A program made the position numbers and the translations under genes. Below, in pieces: positions 2 through 11,800 of a stretch of DNA of 64,000 bases. Below the pieces are notes generated by a model. That model was not told the DNA's origin, ran no database searches, and saw only the letters and a program-made list of their open reading frames with translations. Within the stretch, counting starts at the first letter, position 1. Each line of letters opens with the position of its first letter. The DNA comes from Candidatus Omnitrophota bacterium (GTDB lineage: Bacteria > Omnitrophota > Gorgyraeia > Zapsychrales > Fredricksoniimonadaceae): the NCBI GenBank assembly GCA_016201795.1, contig JACQCF010000010.1:79095-143094 (forward strand), written 5' to 3'.

Positions 2-2977
2 GGTTTCGATACCACCAGCAATGTCGCCAACGATACGATCAGCCGGTTTAGTTTTTATTACACCGAGCGGCTTAAAACCATTAAGTTTATCAATACCCAG
101 GCTTATGATAATTTTCGTGAGGCGCTGCAAAATCTTATTACGTATCCTACTTCCTTTTATTGCCAGGCCCCGGGGAATGAAAGTTCAGCAAATTGCCAGA
201 ATACGCCGCCGTATGGCCTGAGTTTCAGTTCCTATTGTACACAAGCAAAAACAGATGCGACCATGCCAAAGCTGGGGCCTGTCTGCAATCCCAAATGCGC
301 CGGAAGATCACCTCCTCTGCCTCAAACCGAACCAACTGGATATACTTTTATTGACCCTGCACAAGCCTGGAATGACGCCAATCAGCATTGTTCAGAGCTT
401 TGCAGGACGGACTCTTCGGCACAGTGTCCTAAAAATGCGGCTAATGCCAGCCATCCTTACTATAATCTGCTTTATGACCCTTTTTTGGAGCTTGATTATA
501 AATCCGATGATCCCGCTTCATTCCGCGGCCTTTTAGGTTATGATGACGAGAGTGGAGACCCCACCACGTCTGCCCAAATCCAAAAGACTTTTAGCAAGAA
601 TAAGTCGGTGGGAGTTGTTTATCCCATGCTCTGGGACATGAATGGTTTGCCTGCGGGCAATGATCTGACAACCGCCTTTGGCATCCCTGGTTCCTCGGGT
701 GCTTTATTGACGGACAGCCTTTCCAAGGATCCGGTCAATGGCTTGCAGCTTAACTACCGGCCTGCGGATTCGGATCTTGCCACCGCCTGTACTAATGAAG
801 ATAATGTTAAATATCCTGTTGAAACCGGCATTTGGTGGAAGTCGGGAGCTGACCGCTATTGCTCTGGACCAGCTGGCTTAAGGCCTTATCCTCCGTTAGC
901 GGATGGAGCCGAACCGTATAATTATTGGCCTTATAGTTCATGTCCTTATATGTACAACAGCGCTGGCCAAAAGATCTCTTGTACTCAGAGTACGCAGAAG
1001 TCTCTTTGGGTGCAAGACCGCTTGGATACCATGGTCTATGGTTTAAATAGTTTTTTAAAATTTAACCAGTATTTGCAGAAGATTCCTGAAAAGACATTGG
1101 CCTCGTCGGTGGACACCTGGTATCCGCAAGCAGCTGCCTGGATCGCGCCGCAATGTAAAACTCCAACCGGTGGTCAAAGCTGTGCCGCTGACATCACCAA
1201 TCATCCAGGATGTAGTGCGGTCCAGTATATGATTACTAACAACAACTATGATAGCAGTTACTTAACCTGCAGCCCTAATCACGACGGATATTTGATCCAA
1301 TACATGAATGACCTTTACAATTGGAGAAACCAGCTTGACAATTGGTTGGGGGAGAGCCCTGACCCAACAAAACCCGACCCAACAAAATTTACACAATTCG
1401 GGGACTCTTCCACTGATTTATGCTCAGGCACTATCACTGATGTCATCACATGTTTAAACAGGTATCAAAATATACAGCCCTCTTTTGATACCTGCTGGCA
1501 GAATTTTCCACCAACCACCACCGATGCCGGCGGCAATACCGTTTATCCTGATTTTACCAATACCACCAGCCCGGATTATAACAAGGCTTGCGCCGATCTT
1601 CTCAACGACTATTCAACACAGCAATCATACTTTAGCGGCGTTACCTTTAACCCTGATCCTGCGCTTCCCGCAGGCTTTACGTATAATCGAGACCAGGCCA
1701 CCTATGAGGCATTTCAAAAATGGGTAGAGACGTACACTACTTTTATGGACACCCTTTCTTCCAGGGGGGATGTTTTATCAAGTTTAAAGGACGAGGTAGG
1801 TCACACCAGGGACTTATTTGATGAGGGCTACAAGGATTTTAGTAATTTCCTTGGGTCAGGGGGCCCGGCGGATGATCTGATGCAGGCCAGGCTTGATTCT
1901 CTGGACGATCTCATTAACCGCCTGCCGCCTTTTGTCATCTATGGCTGGAAGGACAAGGGCGGACGCATTGTGGATAACACCATTTCCCACCCGTGGCATT
2001 TGTTGCGGGTGGAAATGAAGTTGCCTCCCAAGAAACCGTGGGTTCATATCTATGAAGACATTTGTCTGGGAGATTTAGTCAGTAGCTTGTATGGAGACAT
2101 CGTCGATGTTTGTAATTACTATGATTTTACTGATGGGGGGACTAAGGATGATCCGCGAGAGGTCTTCTCAAGAGTCACCCGCTGGGACCAGCCGGTGGCC
2201 GGCAATATAACCAAATTTGCCAACAAAATCCCCATCTGGCGGTTTAGATACAATAACCCCAGAGCTGTGGGCGGCGGCGACCCCGCATTAATAAAATCCA
2301 AATGCGTGGGGGAGGTAGCCGAGGATCCTAACCGAGCAGCCTCACCGACATTAGATCCAAACTTTTTAGGCATCGGGTTAAGCGCAGGCACATTTAGTCT
2401 TTTAACTGGAACGCAGCCGGTGGATGACGGTAATGTTGACCCTGACACAAAGCTACCGAGTAGTACTCCTGCGATCGATCCTCTTTTAAGCGCGTCGGAA
2501 CAGAATTCTTATTACGACGCATTTATGATTGATTTTGACCCCCGAGGAAAAATTCCATCTCTTACCAGTAAAGGGTATACACTTAAAGGCGCTGCATGTG
2601 CGGCTGATCCTGATACTCATTGCGCTAACGGAGATTGGGACGTCTGCTGCCCCGCGACCTATTCAGAGTTTCAGTATCGTCCGGCGGGCTGGTGCGCCAC
2701 AACTAATAGAGTGATATGCGCCAAGAGGGCGAGAGTTAAATACATGAAAGACGTACAGGGCAAAGTCCAGGGATGTTTTGATGTGGTGGATCCTTTATTA
2801 AACCAGGGTGTGAAAGCAAGCGCCGGGGCGGGTTACGGAGTGCCAAACAAGCCCCATCATGACTGGCATGAGCAGCTTTATTTAAAAAATTCTCCCGACC
2901 CGAGTAAATTTACTCCTAAGTGTCCATCAGGATCACCTAGTGACGGGAGCACAACCTATGGTGACTGCACATTTTAA
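2..2977 (+). CDS. 5'-partial large Cys/Trp/Tyr/Asn/Pro-rich secreted protein, function unknown (adjacent to Tad-like pilus genes)
   Basis: Frame 2 is open from window position 2 with no stop until TAA 2975-2977, so the listed ATG 263 is internal and the gene continues upstream of the window. Cys-rich, acidic, Pro/Asn/Tyr-rich composition typical of extracellular proteins. No recognisable catalytic motif. Confidence 0.6.
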   Translation, partial: GFDTTSNVANDTISRFSFYYTERLKTIKFINTQAYDNFREALQNLITYPTSFYCQAPGNESSANCQNTPPYGLSFSSYCTQAKTDATMPKLGPVCNPKCAGRSPPLPQTEPTGYTFIDPAQAWNDANQHCSELCRTDSSAQCPKNAANASHPYYNLLYDPFLELDYKSDDPASFRGLLGYDDESGDPTTSAQIQKTFSKNKSVGVVYPMLWDMNGLPAGNDLTTAFGIPGSSGALLTDSLSKDPVNGLQLNYRPADSDLATACTNEDNVKYPVETGIWWKSGADRYCSGPAGLRPYPPLADGAEPYNYWPYSSCPYMYNSAGQKISCTQSTQKSLWVQDRLDTMVYGLNSFLKFNQYLQKIPEKTLASSVDTWYPQAAAWIAPQCKTPTGGQSCAADITNHPGCSAVQYMITNNNYDSSYLTCSPNHDGYLIQYMNDLYNWRNQLDNWLGESPDPTKPDPTKFTQFGDSSTDLCSGTITDVITCLNRYQNIQPSFDTCWQNFPPTTTDAGGNTVYPDFTNTTSPDYNKACADLLNDYSTQQSYFSGVTFNPDPALPAGFTYNRDQATYEAFQKWVETYTTFMDTLSSRGDVLSSLKDEVGHTRDLFDEGYKDFSNFLGSGGPADDLMQARLDSLDDLINRLPPFVIYGWKDKGGRIVDNTISHPWHLLRVEMKLPPKKPWVHIYEDICLGDLVSSLYGDIVDVCNYYDFTDGGTKDDPREVFSRVTRWDQPVAGNITKFANKIPIWRFRYNNPRAVGGGDPALIKSKCVGEVAEDPNRAASPTLDPNFLGIGLSAGTFSLLTGTQPVDDGNVDPDTKLPSSTPAIDPLLSASEQNSYYDAFMIDFDPRGKIPSLTSKGYTLKGAACAADPDTHCANGDWDVCCPATYSEFQYRPAGWCATTNRVICAKRARVKYMKDVQGKVQGCFDVVDPLLNQGVKASAGAGYGVPNKPHHDWHEQLYLKNSPDPSKFTPKCPSGSPSDGSTTYGDCTF

Positions 2978-3446
2978 ACACAGTAATTCTCGTGTCATTG
3001 CGAGGAGTGAAACGACGAAGCAATCTTTTTCTATGGACAAAGAGATTGCTTCGTCGCCTTCGGCTCCTCGCAATGACAGGCGTGGAACTGTTCGCAATGA
3101 CACAAGAGGAGCCTCTGTCATTGAATACATCGTTTTGACAATTATTGTTTTGTCATCATTGTATGTCATGTACAATACGATCAGCAGGGGCATTTTCGGC
3201 AAGCATAAGGTGGCGGGAGATGCGTTTGCCTTCGGTCGTCAGTACGATGCCAGGCGCACCACCACCTGCCGTCAGGACTTTACTTATAGCCAGAACGGCA
3301 CTCCCATCAACGGGGTTTTTTACGACGAGGACTGTTATCAGACGCGTCTGATGCGGCCTTTAGTGAATGGCGGATGTACTCAGGGGGATTTTGCCTGTGA
3401 GGATGTGATTAAAAATTCTTGTATCAGTGATTATTGTAATCAATAA
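2940..3446 (+). CDS. TadE/TadG-like (Flp-type) pseudopilin; start uncertain (ATG 2940 overlaps upstream gene; alternative ATG 3033 lies inside the palindromic element)
   Basis: Translation contains RGASVIEYIVLTIIVLSSL, matching the Flp/TadE N-terminal processing/anchor motif (G-x-x-x-x-E-Y/F followed by a hydrophobic helix). Small Cys-containing C-terminal region. Confidence 0.5.
   Translation: MTGAQPMVTAHFKHSNSRVIARSETTKQSFSMDKEIASSPSAPRNDRRGTVRNDTRGASVIEYIVLTIIVLSSLYVMYNTISRGIFGKHKVAGDAFAFGRQYDARRTTTCRQDFTYSQNGTPINGVFYDEDCYQTRLMRPLVNGGCTQGDFACEDVIKNSCISDYCNQ
2994..3077. repeat. MITE/RPE-like compound palindromic element, copy A (3' of large secreted-protein gene, overlapping 5' leader of TadE-like gene)
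   Basis: GTCATTGCGAGG...CGACGAAGCAATCT...AGATTGCTTCGTCG...CCTCGCAATGAC: 12-bp outer and 14-bp inner inverted repeats. Shares core GTCATTGCGA/GAAGCAATCT/AGATTGCTTC/TCGCAATGAC with three other copies. Confidence 0.8.
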
Positions 3447-3457
3447 AACGGGGCTTT

Positions 3458-4315
3458 ATGATTGTACTTATCTTTTTTTTGATTTTCGTCTCTGTGGGGA
3501 TTTTAGTCTACACCCTCTGGCCGGTGGTGGCGACAAAAGCTCAGGCCATCAATGAAGGGCAGGCGCAGAAGATGGCCTTAAGGTCTGATCTTTACCTGCT
3601 GGAGGATGATCTGCAGAAGACCTATACCCTGGCGCTTTTGGCTCCGCTGGTTTTTGGCGTGGGGGCCTTTATTCTTTTTCCTTCCACCCTGCGTCTGGCG
3701 GGGCTCGTGGTCGGCGTGGTGTTAGGGATTGTTTTGCCGCGGCTGTATGTGAATGCCCTTATTGCCAAAAGAAAGTTGAAGTTTAATGACCAGCTCATTG
3801 ACGCGCTCATGATCATGTCCAGCTCTTTTCGCGGGGGGCTTAGTCTGGTGCAGTCTATTGAGGCGGTCATCGATGAAATGCCCAATCCCATCAAAAGAGA
3901 GTTTGGGGTCGTGCTCGGCGAAAATAAAATGGGGGTGGTGTTCGATGAGAGTCTCAACCGGCTCGCCAAGCGCATGCCTTCGGTGGCGCTCCAGCAGATG
4001 ATCACGGCCATTTTGCTGGCCCGCGAAACCGGCGGTAATTTGCCGGTGATCTTTTCCCGGATCATCAACACCATGCGCGAACGCAAAAAAATAGAACAGA
4101 GTTTAAAGATGCTGACCGTTCAGGGGAAAATTCAGGCGGTGGTCATGACCGGCCTTCCCATTCTTTTTGTCATGGGGGTTTCGGCGTCGAATCCGAGGTT
4201 TTTTGATATTATGTTTCGTATCCCCCAGGGCCAGCAGATGCTGATGGTCTGCGCGGTTCTGTGGATGGTGGGAGCGTTTTTTATATGGCAAATCAGCAAG
4301 TTTAAGGATTTTTAA
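3458..4315 (+). CDS. TadB-like type II secretion system F-domain membrane protein
   Basis: 285-aa polytopic membrane protein, N-terminal TM then a cytoplasmic domain then C-terminal TMs. Sits adjacent to a paralogous 301-aa gene, the typical tadB/tadC pair. Start is preceded by a GGGG Shine-Dalgarno-like stretch. Confidence 0.6.
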   Translation: MIVLIFFLIFVSVGILVYTLWPVVATKAQAINEGQAQKMALRSDLYLLEDDLQKTYTLALLAPLVFGVGAFILFPSTLRLAGLVVGVVLGIVLPRLYVNALIAKRKLKFNDQLIDALMIMSSSFRGGLSLVQSIEAVIDEMPNPIKREFGVVLGENKMGVVFDESLNRLAKRMPSVALQQMITAILLARETGGNLPVIFSRIINTMRERKKIEQSLKMLTVQGKIQAVVMTGLPILFVMGVSASNPRFFDIMFRIPQGQQMLMVCAVLWMVGAFFIWQISKFKDF

Positions 4316-4335
4316 TTATGTCATTGCGAAATGGT

Positions 4336-4429
4336 GTCATTGCGAAGAAGCGAAGCGACTGAAGCAATCTTTTGAGAATCTAATAGATTGCTTCGCTCAC
4401 TGCGTTCGCTCGCAATGACACGAAATCCG
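4336..4429. repeat. MITE/RPE-like compound palindromic element, copy B (intergenic tadB-like/tadC-like)
   Basis: Same core sequence. An extra partial left arm GTCATTGCGAA sits at 4320-4330. Confidence 0.8.
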
Positions 4430-4443
4430 TTTCGGAGAATAAT

Positions 4444-5349
4444 ATGCTCATCTTACCTTTGCTTTTAGTTTTTCTCTCCGTCTTTGCGCTGATCTTAGGA
4501 TTTACGCCTTTATCCATCCAGCCGAAGTTAAAATTGGATTTACCCGTGGCCGGCGGCGAGGGTTTTTCGGCGGGGGCGCCTGCTAAAAAACGGCCTCTGG
4601 ACTTTTTGTTTGGCGGGATACGCAAAATTGCGTTTTTTAACAAACCGTTCACCAACTCCGCTTTGGGCCAGAGGATTTTCAGAGACCTGATGTTAAGCCA
4701 GGTGAGACTTTCCGTTGAGGAATTCTTTTTAATCAAGCAGGCGCTGGCCCTGGGGCTGGTGTGGGTGGCCCTGAAATTCTATCCGGATAAAAATTTTATG
4801 GCTTTTGGTATTCTTATGAGCATGGCCGGCGGCTACTTGATTCCGGAGATTTGGCTGCACGCTAAGGTCCGTAAAATCAAAGCGGCGCTTTTAAAAGATC
4901 TGCCCGACACCGTGGATCTTTTGGGGCTTTGCGTCAATGCCGGATTGGATTTTATGATGGCGCTCAAATACGTGGTGGAAAAGTCCCCCCCGACGGTCAT
5001 TACCGAAGAATTGAAGCTGATGATGCAGGAAATTAACGTGGGCAAGCTGCGGCGGGATGCCCTGCGCGATTTGAGCCGCAAATACGAAATGCCGGATTTA
5101 TCCACTTTTACGCGCACCCTCATTCAGGCCGACCGCATGGGGACCTCGGTCTCGGAAGCGCTCAATATCCTTTCCGAAGATATGCGCGAGACGCGTTTTC
5201 GCCGCGGAGAAACCATGGCGCTCAAAGCTCCGCTGAAAATGCTGGTTCCTTTGCTGTTCTGCATCTTCCCGGTGGTAGCCCTTCTGGTGGCCGGGCCGGT
5301 ATTTTTGGATTTCTTCCACAATAATCCTTTGCGTAATTTAGGCCGGTAA
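4444..5349 (+). CDS. TadC-like type II secretion system F-domain membrane protein
   Basis: 301-aa paralogue of the upstream gene with the same topology. GGAG Shine-Dalgarno 8 nt upstream of ATG 4444. Confidence 0.6.
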   Translation: MLILPLLLVFLSVFALILGFTPLSIQPKLKLDLPVAGGEGFSAGAPAKKRPLDFLFGGIRKIAFFNKPFTNSALGQRIFRDLMLSQVRLSVEEFFLIKQALALGLVWVALKFYPDKNFMAFGILMSMAGGYLIPEIWLHAKVRKIKAALLKDLPDTVDLLGLCVNAGLDFMMALKYVVEKSPPTVITEELKLMMQEINVGKLRRDALRDLSRKYEMPDLSTFTRTLIQADRMGTSVSEALNILSEDMRETRFRRGETMALKAPLKMLVPLLFCIFPVVALLVAGPVFLDFFHNNPLRNLGR

Positions 5350-5414: not shown

Positions 5415-6635
5415 ATGTACACCACGCGTTTGTTAGAAAAAACTTTGAAAGAAGCCGTGCAGTCTTTTCCGGTGGTTTTTATCGGCGGCCCGCGAAGAAG
5501 CGGCAAGACCACATTATCGCAAACATTCCTGAAAGGATACCGTTATGTCCTTTTGGACGAAATGGATGTGCGTTCGTTAGCCATAGAGGATCCGCGCGGC
5601 TTTCTGGAGAAATATCCGCCCCCGGTCATTATTGATGAAATCCAAAATGCGCCGCATCTTTTATCGCATATCAAAGCCCGTATGGAGGTCAATAAGAAGC
5701 CGGGGCAGTGGATTTTGACCGGTTCTCAACAATGGGCCTTGATGAAAGGTATCAGTGAAACATTGGCCGGGCGCATCGCTATTTTACACTTGTATCCTTT
5801 TTCCATAGAGGAAATTCAAAAGACCCGACGGGTTCATTTAAATGAGGCGGGCGGGTTTGTTAAGAGTTTGATGCAGGCTAAAAAAATACCGGACAAGATG
5901 ATCCCTCTTGGGCGCTGGATTCTACAAGGCGGGTACCCAGAAGTGGTCCTTAATAAGAAAGCGTCTCGCAAACTTTGGTTTTCCAGTTATTTGCAGACTT
6001 ATGTGGATAGGGATGTCCGCGGGCTTATCAAACAATCCAATCTTCATGATTTTGAGCGGTTTGTAAAACTTTTAGCGGCACGCACGGCGCAGGAGCTTAA
6101 TTGTTCCACGCTTTCGCGCGATATCGGCGTTTCCGTTCCTACCATAAAGTCTTGGATTACGCTTTTGGAAACGAGTGGACTCATCTTTCTTTTGATGCCT
6201 TATCATAGAAATTTCGGAAAAAGGATCATCAAAGCGCCCAAGTGTTATTTTATGGATACGGGGCTGGCGGCGTATCTCGTCGGCCTACAGGATGAGGAGC
6301 ACACCCTGCAAGGGCCTATGGCGGGCGCACTCTTCGAGACGGCCTGTGTTGCTCAATTTTATAAACGGTTTACCGCCTTGGTGGACCCTTGTTCACTTTA
6401 CTACTATCGCAGTATGGATGGGTTGGAAGTGGACCTTTTGATTGAAACCGGCAAAACGATTTATCCCATTGAAATGAAATTATCCTCGACCATTGATTAT
6501 GGACGAACAGCGTCTTTGATGAAGTGGCTGGAAATTTCTAAAATCAAAGATGGCCGGGGACTGATCATTTCCGCCTCCAGGGAATTGGGGTCGGTGGGTA
6601 AAAACGTAGCAAACTGCCACTATTCGCTGATTTAA
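5415..6635 (+). CDS. AAA+ ATPase, DUF4143/COG1373 family (ATP-binding protein)
   Basis: Walker A GGPRRSGKTTL and Walker B VIIDEIQ, with a C-terminal DUF4143-like region. Consensus promoter immediately upstream. Confidence 0.8.
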   Translation: MYTTRLLEKTLKEAVQSFPVVFIGGPRRSGKTTLSQTFLKGYRYVLLDEMDVRSLAIEDPRGFLEKYPPPVIIDEIQNAPHLLSHIKARMEVNKKPGQWILTGSQQWALMKGISETLAGRIAILHLYPFSIEEIQKTRRVHLNEAGGFVKSLMQAKKIPDKMIPLGRWILQGGYPEVVLNKKASRKLWFSSYLQTYVDRDVRGLIKQSNLHDFERFVKLLAARTAQELNCSTLSRDIGVSVPTIKSWITLLETSGLIFLLMPYHRNFGKRIIKAPKCYFMDTGLAAYLVGLQDEEHTLQGPMAGALFETACVAQFYKRFTALVDPCSLYYYRSMDGLEVDLLIETGKTIYPIEMKLSSTIDYGRTASLMKWLEISKIKDGRGLIISASRELGSVGKNVANCHYSLI

Positions 6636-6645
6636 ACCCGCCGCC

Positions 6646-6676
6646 ATCCTTTGCGTAATTTGGGCCGGTAAACTCT
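6646..6676. repeat. 31-bp direct repeat, copy 2 (downstream of AAA+ ATPase gene)
   Basis: ATCCTTTGCGTAATTTGGGCCGGTAAACTCT. With copy 1 it brackets the promoter plus ATPase gene (about 1.3 kb). Confidence 0.85.
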
Positions 6677-6682
6677 AACTAA

Positions 6683-6708
6683 CCCCGAACCTCGCAGGTT
6701 CGGAAAAT
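6683..6708. repeat. 26-bp stem-loop element, copy 1 (CCCCGAACCTCGCAGGTTCGGAAAAT)
   Basis: 7-bp stem CCGAACC/GGTTCGG with a 5-nt loop. Lies immediately after the stop codon (6710-6712) of the minus-strand regulator gene, between convergent genes. Confidence 0.7.
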
Positions 6709-6709
6709 T

Positions 6710-7681
6710 TTAAACCTCACTGATCACATCAAACCCTTTAAAGCTGCCGACAATGGCCAGCCCAACAATTTGCCCCCGGCAGAGGTTTTTGCGTTTGATT
6801 TGAGCGGCTGTTTCATTGAGCGTCGCGCCGGAGCCCACCGCATCATCAATAAGCAGGATATTGTTAAAAGGCGTTTTATCTTCCACGATCAGGGTTTGTT
6901 TGGCGTTATCGATACGGTCCTGGAGTTTATTAAGTGTCTTTTGGGCAATAAGGACATCCGTCTTAGCCTTAACAATGGACAGCAGCCGCTGGCGGATATG
7001 GAGCCGCTTTTTTAGCTCATTGATCAGCTGCACTTCGCGTTTGACCGTCGGTGGGATAAAGCCCGCCGCGTCAATATCAAACTGACTGATAATGGTTTTG
7101 ATGGGATGGTCGATGATTTCCACCAGCGCCGCAATCTGTTTTTTGTTCTGGCTGGATTTAGCCAGCAGCACCAGTTGTCCCAGTCTAGTTTTGCCAAAAC
7201 GTTCTATAGCATAAAAATCCAAATAGAAAAGCCTGTCCAATGCGATCTCTTTGAACGTGGAGCGCATTTTAGGCATGCCATCGATGAGTCCCTCTTTTTG
7301 ATATTGGCCATATTGGGCCATGGTTAACGCGTATTCTTTGGCTGTTTTGGCAGCGTCTAAATTTTGCTTGGCACACCAAGCCCTAAAACCGTTGACGCCG
7401 GTTTCTTGCTGTCCTAAAGGTGAAACATAATAAAAGTTTTTTTCAATCACATCCCTCGTTTGTTCATCAAGCAGGAAGATCTGCGGCTGTTCTTTGGGAT
7501 CAGTCAGGGTGTAAAAAACTTTTGGTGGGCGGCCCAGTTTTTGAATTAAGCCTTTTTCACAAAGAACTTTAAGTTGTTTGAAAACAGCCCGGGGGCCTAT
7601 GTTCAAAAGATTATAAAGATCCTTTGGACTGGTCTGGGGGTTTTGAGCAATATATTCTAAGATTTTTTGAGATGTATTCAT
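6710..7681 (-). CDS. PurR-like regulator: N-terminal winged-HTH fused to a phosphoribosyltransferase (PRPP-binding) domain
   Basis: N-terminal HTH-like segment (ILEYIAQNPQTSPKDLYNLLNIGPRAVFKQLKVLCEKGLI). C-terminal PRTase PRPP-binding motif LLIDDAVGSGATL. Perfect palindrome at its start codon and a consensus sigma70-like promoter upstream. Confidence 0.6.
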   Translation of the reverse strand: MNTSQKILEYIAQNPQTSPKDLYNLLNIGPRAVFKQLKVLCEKGLIQKLGRPPKVFYTLTDPKEQPQIFLLDEQTRDVIEKNFYYVSPLGQQETGVNGFRAWCAKQNLDAAKTAKEYALTMAQYGQYQKEGLIDGMPKMRSTFKEIALDRLFYLDFYAIERFGKTRLGQLVLLAKSSQNKKQIAALVEIIDHPIKTIISQFDIDAAGFIPPTVKREVQLINELKKRLHIRQRLLSIVKAKTDVLIAQKTLNKLQDRIDNAKQTLIVEDKTPFNNILLIDDAVGSGATLNETAAQIKRKNLCRGQIVGLAIVGSFKGFDVISEV

Positions 7682-7711
7682 AGTTCATAGTTCATAGTGA
7701 ACTATGAACTA
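7677..7711. promoter_or_regulatory. Perfect 14-bp inverted repeat (TAGTTCATAGTTCA-TAG-TGAACTATGAACTA), candidate operator overlapping the start codon of the PurR-like gene
   Basis: 7681-7694 is the exact reverse complement of 7698-7711. Extended by TTCA at 7677-7680, giving TTCATAG x3. Spans the ATG at 7679-7681 and lies just downstream of the -10. Confidence 0.6.
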
Positions 7712-7712
7712 T

Positions 7713-7741
7713 AATATACCAAGATAAATTGAACTTGTCAA
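7713..7741 (-). promoter_or_regulatory. sigma70 consensus-like promoter (TTGACA-17-TATATT) for PurR-like gene
   Basis: On the minus strand: TTGACA (7736-7741), a 17-nt spacer, then TATATT (7713-7718). Sits directly upstream of the operator palindrome and start codon 7681. Confidence 0.6.
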
Positions 7742-7743
7742 GT

Positions 7744-7769
7744 CCCCGAACCTCGCAGGTTCGGAAAAT
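7744..7769. repeat. 26-bp stem-loop element, copy 2 (identical sequence)
   Basis: Lies immediately after the stop codon (7771-7773) of the minus-strand toxin gene, in the same position relative to the stop as copy 1. Confidence 0.7.
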
Positions 7770-7770
7770 C

Positions 7771-8028
7771 TTAAGGATTTTGTAATAAATCGTGGGTGCC
7801 GATTTTTCTTAAGAAAGCCGTATCGCCAATTTTTTGGTAGGTGATGCGGTAATTGATGTTGACGCGCAACTCCCAAACATCTTTATAACCTGTCATCTTT
7901 TTATGCTCAAGGGAAGGATGGAAGGGATTGTCTCTAAGAAGGGCTAGAGATTTTTTAGCTTGGGTTTGTACTTCACTGGGTAATTTTTGATATAGTTTGA
8001 GAAATTGTTTGGATGTTTCAATGATCAA
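7771..8028 (-). CDS. RelE/ParE-family type II toxin (mRNA interferase)
   Basis: 85-aa protein with RelE/ParE-like signature regions (SKQFLKLYQKLP...NPFHPSL...WELRVNINYRITYQ...IGTHD). TTG start overlaps the upstream antitoxin gene by 11 nt. Confidence 0.65.
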   Translation of the reverse strand: MIIETSKQFLKLYQKLPSEVQTQAKKSLALLRDNPFHPSLEHKKMTGYKDVWELRVNINYRITYQKIGDTAFLRKIGTHDLLQNP

Positions 8029-8311
8029 AATCGTAGTCCTTTTTACCGTCTAAAATATCAAATAACTCCTCAAGATTTTTAGTTTTTGTGACCCGTCCGG
8101 CTTTAATGTCTTCCTCCGCTTCTTTTTCGCCTTTTTGCCATTCTGGCGTGAAGAAATAAGCTTGATCTTTGGGAATGGAGACATGAGGTTTTAAATAAAT
8201 GCCGTTGTGAACAATTTGCACATCCAAATAATCATTTTTGTGTAAATGAAGATTCTTGACCACTTCTTTTGGAATAGCAATTTGGTAATTAGCGCCAAGT
8301 TTTCTAAGCAT
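8018..8311 (-). CDS. AbrB/MazE/SpoVT-family antitoxin (start reassigned to ATG 8311; track ORF extends to TTG 8335)
   Basis: N-terminus MLRKLGANYQIAIPKEVVKNL fits the SpoVT/AbrB swapped-hairpin fold motif. AGGAGG lies 9 nt upstream of ATG 8311. The TTG at 8335 overlaps the predicted -10 box, so it is unlikely to be the start. Confidence 0.6.
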   Translation of the reverse strand: MLRKLGANYQIAIPKEVVKNLHLHKNDYLDVQIVHNGIYLKPHVSIPKDQAYFFTPEWQKGEKEAEEDIKAGRVTKTKNLEELFDILDGKKDYDFDH

Positions 8312-8334
8312 GTTGATCATCCTCCTTTGATTCA

Positions 8335-8362
8335 ACTATATCATAAAATATGGAAATGTCAA
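8335..8362 (-). promoter_or_regulatory. Promoter for antitoxin-toxin operon (TTGACA-16-TATAGT on minus strand)
   Basis: Minus-strand TTGACA corresponds to + strand 8357-8362, and TATAGT to + strand 8335-8340. Followed by AAGGAGG and ATG 8311. Confidence 0.5.
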
Positions 8363-8786: not shown

Positions 8787-8850
8787 GTGTTATACTCTTC
8801 TTATACGACGAGAACTCGTTAAAATTAGAGCTTAACCAAGCTAATTCTTA

Positions 8851-11800
8851 ATGAATAAAAACGAAGAATTCAATCAAAAAACCCCCCAGGACGATGGTGG
8901 TTTTGCTTTTATTCCAGAGAATATAGATAAAAGCAAAAAATCAGATTTCCCCTCGTTGCAGCCTCCAGAAAGCATTTCCCCAGAGCAGGTTACGTCAATT
9001 AAACCGGAAATTCCTTTAGCCGACAAAAGGCCGTTTGTGAGCAATTTCAAACAATGGATCAGGACGGTCGCCATCGTGATTCTGGCGGTGTTTGTGCCGG
9101 ATCAGGTGAGCTGGGCATTTGGCTATAACCCAACGGTGCTGTATAAAAACCTGCCTATTGCCCAGGCGCCGTTGACTGGGGTAGGGGCGATCAATGATCA
9201 CCCCCAACAGGCAAGCGCCCAGGTTGCCGGTTCGGTGGAATACTTGCTCAAGCAGATCCAGGATAAAGACCGGCTGAGGGTACAATTAAATTTGGATAAT
9301 CAGCCGGTCAGTCAATGGTCAATGGTCAATGGTCAAAATATTCTACCATCCACTATTCACCCTAAACCATTAACCGTTGACACCCGCACCACGTTTGATC
9401 AAAACAACATTGCCAAAATTACCCAGTGGCTCTCTGATCCCAATCTCAATGTTCTTAACTGCGGGGTGTATGCCCTGCAGGAAGTGCTGGCCAAGAAAGG
9501 TATCAACCGCTCCCTGGAAGAAATTTCCGTGCTGACGGTCTCCACGGATTTGCTGGCCAATATCATCAAGGTGGGCGAGCCCAAACTCAAGACCACGTTG
9601 TTTGCCATCAGCAAAGTCGGCTCCGCCCTGGGGCTTAATTACCAGGCGCTTAAAGTCGAGGCCAAAGAGGAGCTCAATTTACCCGCGCCTTTTATCGCCC
9701 ATTTAAACAGCGAGCATTTTGTGACGGTCAAAAAGGTCAGCGGGCACAAAGTCTTTATCGATGATCTTGGCCATCCGCAGATTGTTGAGCGCGCCGAGTT
9801 TGAGAAAAATTTAGACGGGTTTGTGTATACAGAAATTCCGTCAAGTGTCATTGCGAGCGAACACAGTGAGCGAAGCAATCTATTAGATTCTCATCAAAAG
9901 ATTGCTTCAGTCGCTACGCTCCTTCGCAATGACACAGCCATACAATACGAAATCGTCCCCGAAGCCATGCAAGCCTTTGTCTGGGGCGACAAGTGGCGCG
10001 ACAGGTCGCAGAACCTGCCGGGGTTGTTTAACGCCGAACAGTTTGCCATTACCCAACTCACCGCAATCGTGGGAGCCTTTTGCCCGGTATGCGGCCTGGC
10101 CATGACCGTTGGTTATCAAGCTGCCAACGGCGCATCCATGGAGCAAATTGGAATGACCATTGGTATCGCCGTGGCGATGATGGCCTTATCAGCAGCGGTC
10201 GGCGCGGCTAGCAACAGCGGCGGGTCTACTACAGATGCCGGAGGGACAACTGGCACTGGAACAACAGGCACCGAGGTCACGGGAACAACAGGCACCGAGG
10301 TCACGGGAACAACAGGTACGGAAGTCACCGCTGGAACAGGCACACCAGTCGGTACAGGAGTTGGCACTGCAACATCTACAACTCCCACCACTTTCGGGGG
10401 CCGGTTTTGGGGCAATTTTACAGGCAACTTTACTAAACCGGTTTTAAGCGTCGGAAATCTTACCATGAGCTTCGTCGGCATGGCCGCCAGCAGATTGGCG
10501 GGGGACATAGCTACGATTTGCGTGCTGGAGGGAGCCTGCGATCAGACCACCGGATTTATTTTAAGCACCGCGCTTTCGATTGGGTTAACCGTTGGGGTCG
10601 CGTCTGTCGCTAATTTCGGGAAAACTGCTCCTGTGGATGCCAGCAAAGATACACTGGCTAATGGCGGCACAGAATTTGACGCTCAGTACGTTCATGATGC
10701 TGTTGCCGGCGGCGCGAGCCCAGACGATGCCACCTTTTGGGCCTGGTTTGATGGAGCATCAGAAAAGCAAGCTATGTTAATTGGGACGGAAGTCGCCAAA
10801 TTTTCAGGAAGTTTCTCAAATTTCGCAACAGCTTTTGCCAAAGGTCTTGCCAAAGGCCTTGTTTTAGGCGCGGTCAAAGGCATTGTGTCATTGGAAGTCA
10901 CTCAGGCCGTCAACAGCGCCATCTGCCCTCATCAAAATAAATGCAGTGAAAGCGATAAAATTTTGTCGCAGACCCTGGGCACGCTTCTGTCTTCCGTGGC
11001 CTCCGATGTGGCGGTTGCCACGGTGAGGTATATCGGCGATAACATTTCTAAGGGAGCAGCCGGTTTCGGCAAAATGCCGGGAACCCAACCAGGAAAAACA
11101 GATGCTTTTATTGCTGCGGAAAATAAAGTCAAAGATATCAGCAATACGCAGGAGTATGAAACTGCAATGGAAAAGGCTGGGGATGATTGGTTCCGTCAAA
11201 GATACGATAAAGCCATTAAAAATGGCGAAGATCTTAGCAAAATAGATTTTGAGGGGGGCGTTCAACAAGCGGAACAACAGTGGAAGGCTTCCACCAATCA
11301 AGACAACTTTTTTAAGGGTGAACTCGGTTACATGGCAAACAATAACGGCAGCGAAGGCGAGTGGCATCCAGCCAACTTCTTTAAATATACGGGGGTGATT
11401 TTAAAAGCCGACCTTCCCTTTATCGCCGGTCAGCTCACCGGCGGGGCCCTGCGCCTGGCCGCGGCCCAGATGGGCATTAAAGCTGACAGCCAATTCTCCC
11501 AAGGTTTTGCCGCAGCCGGTAACCTCCTGAGCAGTGCAGCTATTCAGTATGGGTTTGACAAAACTTTCAGAGAGAGGCCTTTGCTTGACTTTGATAATGG
11601 AATGAAAGGGTTCAGCTCCAGCATCATAGGAGGTATGGTCATGCTGGGCGCTACCCAGGCGGTCATGTCCATGGGATTAATAGCTTTAGAAGGCGCCATC
11701 GTGGGCAAGGCCCCGGGCAGAAATGCTTCGGCCAGACAACTGCGCGATTATGAAAACAATTTGGCCGTATTTCGAACCACGTTTTTGATCGACACCAGTT

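Follow-up and report, generated by a model that had tools for sequence, protein, structure and literature searches.

Whether the giant genes of the Omnitrophota give rise to one chain or to a set of cut pieces is an openly stated question. West-Roberts et al. (2023; bioRxiv 10.1101/2023.11.21.568195) reported N-terminal C39 domains on giant proteins of this phylum ('Archaeovorin'-type), proposed that these proteins cleave themselves, and stated that the cleavage points are unknown. The window analysed here is a 64,000-nucleotide stretch of a Candidatus Omnitrophota genome (assembly GCA_016201795.1, contig JACQCF010000010.1, positions 79,095 to 143,094). It holds an open reading frame (ORF) on the forward strand that begins with an ATG at nt 8851, preceded by an in-frame stop at 8842, and remains open to nt 64000, running past the end of the window (8851-64000). 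This single open frame gives a protein of at least 18,383 aa, in agreement with the giant protein of at least 18,000 aa that had been described from the letters of the DNA alone (hereafter the sequence-only reading). That reading placed a C39/papain-like peptidase domain right after an N-terminal membrane anchor and raised the possibility that the giant protein processes itself into separate functional units. On the results presented below, we regard it as an even call that the first ~380 residues form a processing module in which the C39 protease cuts the chain once, at or next to Gly379.

The N-terminal C39 peptidase domain

The region at nt 9388-9840 is free of stop codons in frame 1, and both motifs that had drawn attention to it, LNCGVYAL (aa 201-208, nt 9451-9474) and HFVTV (aa 289-293, nt 9715-9729), lie in that one open frame. 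The Pfam model PF03412 (Peptidase_C39) matches aa 204-325 with 51.7 bits (E = 1e-13) when a 151-aa piece is searched and with 47 bits when the first 500 aa are used, compared with a gathering score of 22, so that the match is far beyond chance. According to a hidden Markov model (HMM) of the family, the C39 peptidase domain spans aa 173-334 (nt 9367-9852, forward strand), with the Pfam core at nt 9460-9825. NCBIfam models of whole peptidase-containing ABC exporters (PCAT) scored 15-27 bits against cutoffs above 500 and covered only the C39 domain. Direct sequence searches of the PDB, with the domain or with a profile, returned marginal matches only (E = 0.1-0.4 to 6mpz); the sequence link of the domain to solved structures is weak, and it is the Pfam profile and the comparison of folds that carry the connection.

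The fold comparison made use of two AlphaFold models. The first, derived from 9 sequences, has predicted local distance difference test (pLDDT) values of 79-92 across the core, while the second, derived from 31 sequences, has a mean pLDDT of 87.4, a predicted TM-score of 0.83 and core pLDDT values of 90-98. For both models the best Foldseek match was LahT150 (6mpz), with a target-normalised TM-score (TMt) of 0.73, a root-mean-square deviation of 2.6 Å, 128 columns, 22% identity and E = 2e-6. The peptidase domains of PCAT1 and ComA came next, followed by non-catalytic C39-like domains (3zua, 3b79), among them that of HlyB.

A profile search of 1.84 billion representative proteins returned 534 relatives at E <= 0.001 and 140 at E <= 1e-30, and the triad columns were counted in 153 domain copies from 147 representatives that are at most 50% identical to each other. 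Cys204, the predicted nucleophile within the motif N-C-G (nt 9460-9462), is Cys in 143 of 146 copies and Ser in the other 3, and His289, the predicted general base within the motif E-H-F-V (nt 9715-9717), is His in 142 of 144. The third triad residue is Asp305 (nt 9763-9765), 16 residues after the His, a position occupied by Asp in 114, Glu in 14 and Asn in 6 of 141 copies (134 altogether). LahT150 has the same spacing of 16 residues between His101 and Asp117 (PMC6363468). Both features on which the sequence-only reading had staked its call, a significant match to a Peptidase_C39 HMM and a conserved third catalytic residue, are thus found, and the Pfam match, the fold and the three residues together bear out its assignment. 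The domain is a C39-family papain-like cysteine peptidase with its triad in place, and the strong conservation of Cys204, His289 and Asp305 across relatives suggests that it is catalytically intact.

A leader-like segment directly behind the domain

Behind the domain, the same chain continues into a segment that resembles a double-glycine leader (aa 364-382, nt 9940-9996, forward strand; QYEIVPEAMQAFVWGDKWR), in which Gly379 is encoded at nt 9985-9987. Between the last C39 strand and this motif lies a window-specific linker or insert of ~30 aa (aa 335-363, nt 9853-9939) that is gapped in most relatives. The motif was read from 101 aligned N-terminal modules, with its invariant Gly as the anchor point; in the relatives this Gly sits 15-21 residues past the end of the C39 domain profile. 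In the GG/GA group, to which 54 of the 101 modules belong, it takes the form L(-12)-S/T-x-x-E(-8)-A-K-x-I/V(-4)-x-G(-2)-A/G(-1). Position -15 is hydrophobic in this group, -12 is L, I or V and -4 is I or V in 100%, and G occupies -2 in 100%; -11 is S/T, -8 is E or Q in 51 of the 54, -7 is A/S, -6 is K, and -1 is A in 45 or G in 9. Examples are LSDKEAQGIMGA followed by R, LTPAESKKILGA followed by G and LTKEEASGILGG followed by YT. The published leader consensus reads Leu(-12)-X3-Glu(-8)-Leu(-7) and then GG, GA or GS, with positions -4, -7 and -12 held in hydrophobic pockets of the protease (PMC6363468). The leader features at -12, -8, -4, -2 and -1 are present throughout this set of 54 relatives and, judged from the alignment columns, the motif of the GG/GA group is a double-glycine leader signature.

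The window protein belongs to a second subgroup (43 of the 101 modules), in which -12 and -4 are V or I, -11 is P or S, -8 is M or L, and -6, -5, -3 and -2 are A, F, W and G. At -1 there is S (16 of the 43), D (15) or N (10), with K and then W or Y behind it. This is a derived, diverged form of the motif. In the window protein itself, where the segment reads VPEAMQAFVWG379D380 and continues with KW, V at -12, V at -4 and G at -2 fit the leader pattern, while M at -8, Q at -7 and D at -1 do not. The candidate scissile bond could be that between G379 and D380 or that between D380 and K381. By analogy with the C39 toxin domain StbD-CT, which cuts within a Gly pair of GyrB, the bond could be the former rather than the latter.

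The position of the motif is far from random. A strict form of the leader pattern occurs in 51 of 129 stretches of 50 residues taken directly after the domain, compared with 5 matches in the ~239,000 residues that make up the rest of these proteins, an enrichment of ~380-fold. The motif also stands behind the first internal C39 copy of four multi-copy relatives. We know of no such motif behind the C39 domains of ordinary PCAT proteins. Gly379 is among only eight invariant columns of the 31-sequence alignment, together with Cys204 and His289. In the model built from that alignment, aa 361-380 reach pLDDT values of 92-96, compared with 60-75 for the preceding insert; because the segment scores so highly despite the low-scoring insert ahead of it, the model implies that it is packed against the C39 domain. 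A beta-bridge at Asn203, which adjoins Cys204, and bridges at Trp378-Gly379 appear in the 31-sequence model only and not in the 9-sequence model.

Further sites of this kind were sought along all 18,383 aa. GG is found 105 times, where shuffled sequences give 98.5 +/- 9, GA 110 times against 125, and leader-like patterns 6 times against 8.4, and none of GG, GA, GS or the leader-like regular expression is enriched. An HMM of the window-type leader gave a single match over the whole protein, at aa 364-382 (32 bits), and an HMM of the canonical leader gave none in the 18,383 aa. A six-frame scan of the window for small partner ORFs with a GG leader likewise found none, only noise with stop codons. 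The sequence-only reading had looked to GG or GA motifs at inter-domain linkers as candidate cleavage sites, but GG and GA are not enriched over shuffles, and one site alone was found by a leader profile. Its idea of proteolytic self-processing gains from the leader-like motif right behind the domain, whereas the picture of cutting into separate functional units gains no support from these counts. As far as sequence patterns can indicate, there is one candidate site only, and dicing into many units is not supported.

Predicted membrane topology and the proposed cut

The first 68 residues (nt 8851-9054, forward strand) form a poorly conserved tail, variable in length and sequence in the alignment, that is predicted to be cytoplasmic. 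A GG pair at aa 16-17 was considered as an N-terminal GG leader and rejected, as it is not conserved in homologues. The tail is followed by a transmembrane segment (TM1), a hydrophobic stretch at aa 69-91 (nt 9055-9123, forward strand; Kyte-Doolittle peak 1.79) that corresponds to the anchor seen in the sequence-only reading and could be a signal anchor or an extended signal peptide. Of the relatives that start with Met, 116 of 142 have a hydrophobic segment upstream of the C39 domain, which in the family begins at a median residue of 132. K and R are enriched immediately ahead of TM1: counted over 15 residues on each side, the mean is 3.5 for the N flank and 1.3 for the C flank, and the N flank is the higher in 113 of 125 relatives. 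Because the N flank is the richer in K and R, the positive-inside rule predicts that the tail lies inside and the C39 domain of the giant protein outside the cytoplasm.

The end of TM1 is nearly invariant in 97 relatives, with the pattern F-x-P-[ED]-Q-x-[AS]-[WQ]-A-x-x-Y-[ND] (aa 81-94, nt 9091-9132). In the 101-row alignment, in which 4 rows are gapped, F81 is present in 97, P83 in 94, Q85 in 95 and A89 in 97, a degree of conservation far above the need of a plain anchor. Within this stretch S87-W88-A89 (nt 9109-9117, forward strand) fits the -3/-1 rule of signal peptidase I, with a possible cut between A89 and F90; the -1 column is Ala in 97 of 97 relatives and the -3 column is Ala or Ser in 94 of 97. 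Since the conserved end fits a signal peptidase I AXA site (SWA/F), the TM1 'anchor' may be a long cleavable signal peptide.

These elements can be combined into a proposed course of events. The hydrophobic N-terminal segment, whether signal anchor or long signal peptide, would set the region that follows it on the outer face of the cytoplasmic membrane, where the C39 protease with its intact Cys204-His289-Asp305 triad would fold. The chain would then continue into a built-in version of the element by which C39 proteases recognise bacteriocin precursors, an amphipathic leader with an invariant Gly at its end. The protease would bind this segment and make a single cut at or next to Gly379, either in its own chain or in that of a neighbouring copy, both of which are possible. 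The cut would split the module of anchor, protease and leader from the remaining 18,000+ aa, and two hydrophobic segments behind the motif, TM2 (aa 398-421, containing CPVC) and TM3 (aa 433-451; together nt 10042-10203, forward strand), would hold this remainder in the membrane after a cut at G379/D380. Self-cleavage is the simplest meaning of the arrangement because the protease's own recognition sequence follows on the same chain. The identity of the domain, the conservation of the triad, the position and enrichment of the motif, the confident joint modelling of the two and the lack of other sites are results of the analysis; the membrane topology, the catalytic activity, the cleavage of the motif, the exact bond and the choice between action in cis and in trans are what we infer. 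The fuller claim, that an exported C39 protease fused upstream in cis to its own double-glycine leader constitutes a built-in maturation device of a new kind with a single autocatalytic cut at the invariant Gly, is put forward tentatively and falls somewhat short of even.

Several observations weigh against such a cut. The oxyanion-hole Gln six residues before the catalytic Cys is absent, its place being taken by Asn198 in the window protein, and across relatives this column varies and shows a gap in 52 of the 153 copies; the authors of the LahT150 study doubted the role of this Gln (PMC6363468). The predicted extracytoplasmic site differs from that of every characterised leader-cleaving C39 domain. 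In the motif of the window protein Met replaces Glu at -8, Trp stands at -3, and -1 is Asp, where known C39 sites carry Gly, Ala or Ser. The docking of G379 at Cys204 is read solely from pLDDT and DSSP output, and when ten 36-aa motif segments were scanned against NCBIfam, no leader family reached a meaningful E-value, short-motif models having probably been filtered out. Three relatives in which the Cys has become Ser still keep AFVWG, which suggests that the segment can have a role other than that of substrate, and 16 residues separate the Trp-rich segment (W378/W382) from TM2, a placement common among membrane-interface helices. The last two points are what would be seen if the leader-like segment were a pseudo-substrate or structural plug that fills the groove uncut, at least in the WG[D/S/N] subgroup. 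The protease would then be auto-inhibited, or the segment would serve as juxtamembrane packing before TM2, and other substrates, if any, would be reached after its displacement. In the subgroup of the window protein Glu(-8) has also been lost, and 25 of 43 modules carry D or N at -1, residues that are unusual for C39 sites and that canonical C39 enzymes are not known to accept. The high pLDDT of the segment would be no less likely if it formed a stable plug. Harder to reconcile with a plug are the invariance of Gly at -2 and the small or polar nature that -1 retains, as well as the strong conservation of the catalytic triad. Moreover, GS, a known cleavable variant, is the commonest ending in the window subgroup (16 of 43), and in the sister subgroups textbook GG/GA leaders run into a polar and variable stretch of the kind usually found at cleavage sites. 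Overall we consider a plug rather unlikely, although a plugging or auto-inhibitory role is a serious rival for the window protein in particular.

The remaining explanations are less probable than this. Dicing of the giant protein into separate enzymes, by C39 cuts at many inter-domain linkers, has been published as a hypothesis (West-Roberts et al., 2023) and was also suggested by the sequence-only reading. The protein does contain several unrelated enzyme domains and its protease looks catalytically intact, but the GG, GA and leader-like counts lie near or below those of shuffled sequences and the leader HMMs match only aa 364-382. In the relatives, too, the strict motif is nearly confined to the spot right after the C39 domain, and many predicted membrane passes separate that domain from large parts of the protein; dicing therefore appears improbable. 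It is still more doubtful that the protease acts in trans, on surface or cytosolic proteins of prey or on parts of a Tad-like pilus such as a pseudopilin with G/ASVIEY encoded upstream. C39 toxin domains exist in polymorphic toxins (PMC3482391), with StbD-CT, Cpe1 and Tox-PL-C39 as examples, and giant Omnitrophota proteins have been linked to predation; for the pilus, the synteny with pseudopilin and TadB/TadC genes is kept in 13 loci and no prepilin peptidase was found in the window. However, the domain sits at a membrane-proximal N-terminus rather than at a delivered C-terminal tip, and prepilins are cleaved at the cytoplasmic face by aspartic peptidases, whereas the C39 domain is predicted outside. 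Action in trans would also leave the fused leader-like motif behind the domain unexplained. The smallest chance of all is given to a non-catalytic C39-like domain that, as in HlyB, would bind or chaperone part of the giant protein during export. The missing oxyanion Gln and the C39-like domains among the structural matches (3zua, 3b79) are compatible with this, yet such domains are without the catalytic Cys, whereas in this family 95-98% of relatives retain Cys, His and Asp, and the best structural matches are active peptidases. A HlyB-type domain was rejected as the principal explanation because the triad is conserved.

Related systems, neighbouring genes and wider meaning

The proposed self-cleaving module can be set beside several known systems. 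The peptidase domains of AMS/PCAT exporters (LahT150, PCAT1 and ComA; MEROPS C39) have the same fold as the window domain (TMt 0.72-0.75) and the same Cys-His-Asp triad with equal spacing from His to Asp, and they recognise L-12, E-8, a hydrophobic residue at -4 and GG/GA/GS, the pattern that follows the domain in relatives of the giant protein. They differ in being fused to ABC membrane and ATPase domains, neither of which occurs in the giant protein (no match to ABC_membrane or ABC_tran anywhere in the visible 18,383 aa by Pfam). Their peptidase domain is cytoplasmic, while that of the giant protein follows a signal-like segment and is predicted outside; their leader stands at the N-terminus of a separate small peptide, while the leader-like motif of the giant protein lies on the same chain, C-terminal of the protease. 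The Gln at Cys-6, a feature of AMS/PCAT enzymes, is not conserved in the giant-protein family, and the profile of this family misses ordinary PCAT domains, its matches numbering only 534 in 1.84 billion proteins. HlyB-type domains, for their part, are without the Cys that is present and conserved as Cys204 in the giant protein.

StbD-CT, a C39 domain, cleaves itself in cis after the Gly-Gly of a flanking linker, in dependence on its catalytic Cys, and cuts GyrB between two Gly residues (bioRxiv 10.64898/2026.05.07.723447). StbD-CT and Cpe1 resemble the proposed arrangement in that a cut in cis frees a C39 domain, itself part of a very large surface protein, from its tether. In those proteins, however, the domain is a delivered toxin at the C-terminus, and the site, on its N-terminal side, is a plain GG that lacks the rest of the leader consensus; in the giant protein the site is C-terminal of the domain, the module is N-terminal, and the whole leader pattern is seen in relatives. 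As functional analogies, a cysteine protease also processes or releases a giant multi-domain protein, surface-bound or secreted, at a defined small-residue site in MARTX and large clostridial toxins (C80) and in LapG/LapA (C93). These peptidases belong to unrelated or only distantly related families, with inositol hexakisphosphate (InsP6) and cyclic di-GMP (c-di-GMP)/LapD as activators and with other site motifs.

Four ORFs lie upstream on the strand of the giant gene (263-5349). They comprise a 904-aa ORF without a Pfam match, a 168-aa pseudopilin-like ORF with the prepilin-type motif G/ASVIEY and two T2SSF genes identified with Pfam (TadB/TadC-like; E-values 8e-15 and 9e-17), the last three making up a group of Tad/type II secretion-like genes at 2940-5349. 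A pseudopilin gene and two T2SSF genes are found directly upstream of the C39 giant gene, on the same strand, in 13 Omnitrophota loci (L004, L006-L009, L011-L013, L016, L017, L019-L021), and the 904-aa ORF is weakly conserved in these syntenic loci. The pseudopilin-like ORF begins with a GTG at 2940 and shares 38 nt (2940-2977) with the end of the 904-aa ORF, a sign either of translational coupling or of a true start further downstream. In the window, the stretch from the TadC-like gene to the giant gene holds three extra genes (5415-8335) that are absent from most syntenic loci: an AAA_14/DUF4143 ATPase on the forward strand and, on the reverse strand, a helix-turn-helix (HTH)-phosphoribosyltransferase-like gene and a MazE/AbrB-like antitoxin with no obvious toxin partner.

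Beyond the module, Pfam matches in the visible 18,383 aa of the giant protein comprise Glyco_trans_2_3, Guanylate_kin and ARMT1-like domains, with CofD below threshold. No second C39 domain was found by Pfam in this part, nor a SecA_DEAD domain at E <= 0.001, although the latter may lie beyond the window. The protein has 37 hydrophobic segments by the Kyte-Doolittle scale, and a Gly/Thr-rich low-complexity tract with tandem 'TGTTGTEV' units directly follows TM3 (nt ~10215-10365, aa ~455-505). Cys is very scarce, with 10 residues in 18,383 aa (0.05%), at aa 204, 411, 414, 557, 563, 692, 698, 6377, 12347 and 13732. Seven of the 10 fall within the first 700 aa, namely the catalytic Cys204, the CPVC of TM2 and two Cx5C pairs conserved in homologues, leaving 3 in the other ~17,700 aa.

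Relatives are named 'cysteine peptidase family C39 domain-containing protein' by NCBI and are assigned to Candidatus Omnitrophota, Gygaella and Gorgyraea. The related genome loci, 21 in number, all come from metagenome-assembled genomes of Omnitrophota, four of them labelled Planctomycetales, and the best is 65% identical over the module. Four Omnitrophota relatives (P0063, P0111, P0149 and P0141) have two or three internal copies of the C39 subfamily, at about residues 570-790 and 1570-2000, in place of one N-terminal copy; none of the later internal copies has the motif behind it, and in three of the four proteins a later copy has Ser for the triad Asp. A cluster of 24 proteins with a PF03412 architecture has been described among long Omnitrophota proteins (bioRxiv 10.64898/2026.06.07.730766). 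Many such giant genes were reported to lie near type II secretion-like genes (bioRxiv 10.1101/2023.11.21.568195), and a divergent SecA DEAD helicase domain was reported for 'most' full-length members (West-Roberts et al., 2023). The window protein shares with them the phylum, an ORF in the range of tens of thousands of codons, an N-terminal C39 domain near a signal-like segment, many hydrophobic segments and adjoining type II secretion/Tad-like genes. It is a new sequence, and SecA_DEAD was not found in its visible part.

The C39 domain on such proteins and the idea of self-processing are thus already published, and the group to which the window protein adds a new member has been described before. 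What is added here is a conserved and previously unreported candidate cleavage site in cis, a predicted extracytoplasmic location and evidence against multi-site dicing; the text of West-Roberts et al. (2023) makes no mention of a double-glycine, leader or cleavage-site motif. The arrangement of the C39 peptidase seen here has not been characterised before. The leader-like motif turns a vague idea of self-cleavage into a precise prediction, a Cys204-dependent cut at G379 +/- 1. If confirmed, this would be a third C39 arrangement, an exported protease with a full leader downstream, in addition to the transporter-fused domains that act on separate peptides and the toxin domains with an upstream GG. 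The giant protein would then be its own 'bacteriocin precursor plus processing enzyme', and its cut would be the first cleavage point to be defined for a giant protein of the Omnitrophota. Such a cut would have one of two outcomes: the release of a periplasmic protease of ~290 aa, provided that signal peptidase cuts as well at A89, or the unlatching of the giant remainder from its N-terminal anchor, which might be a regulated step in attachment to prey.

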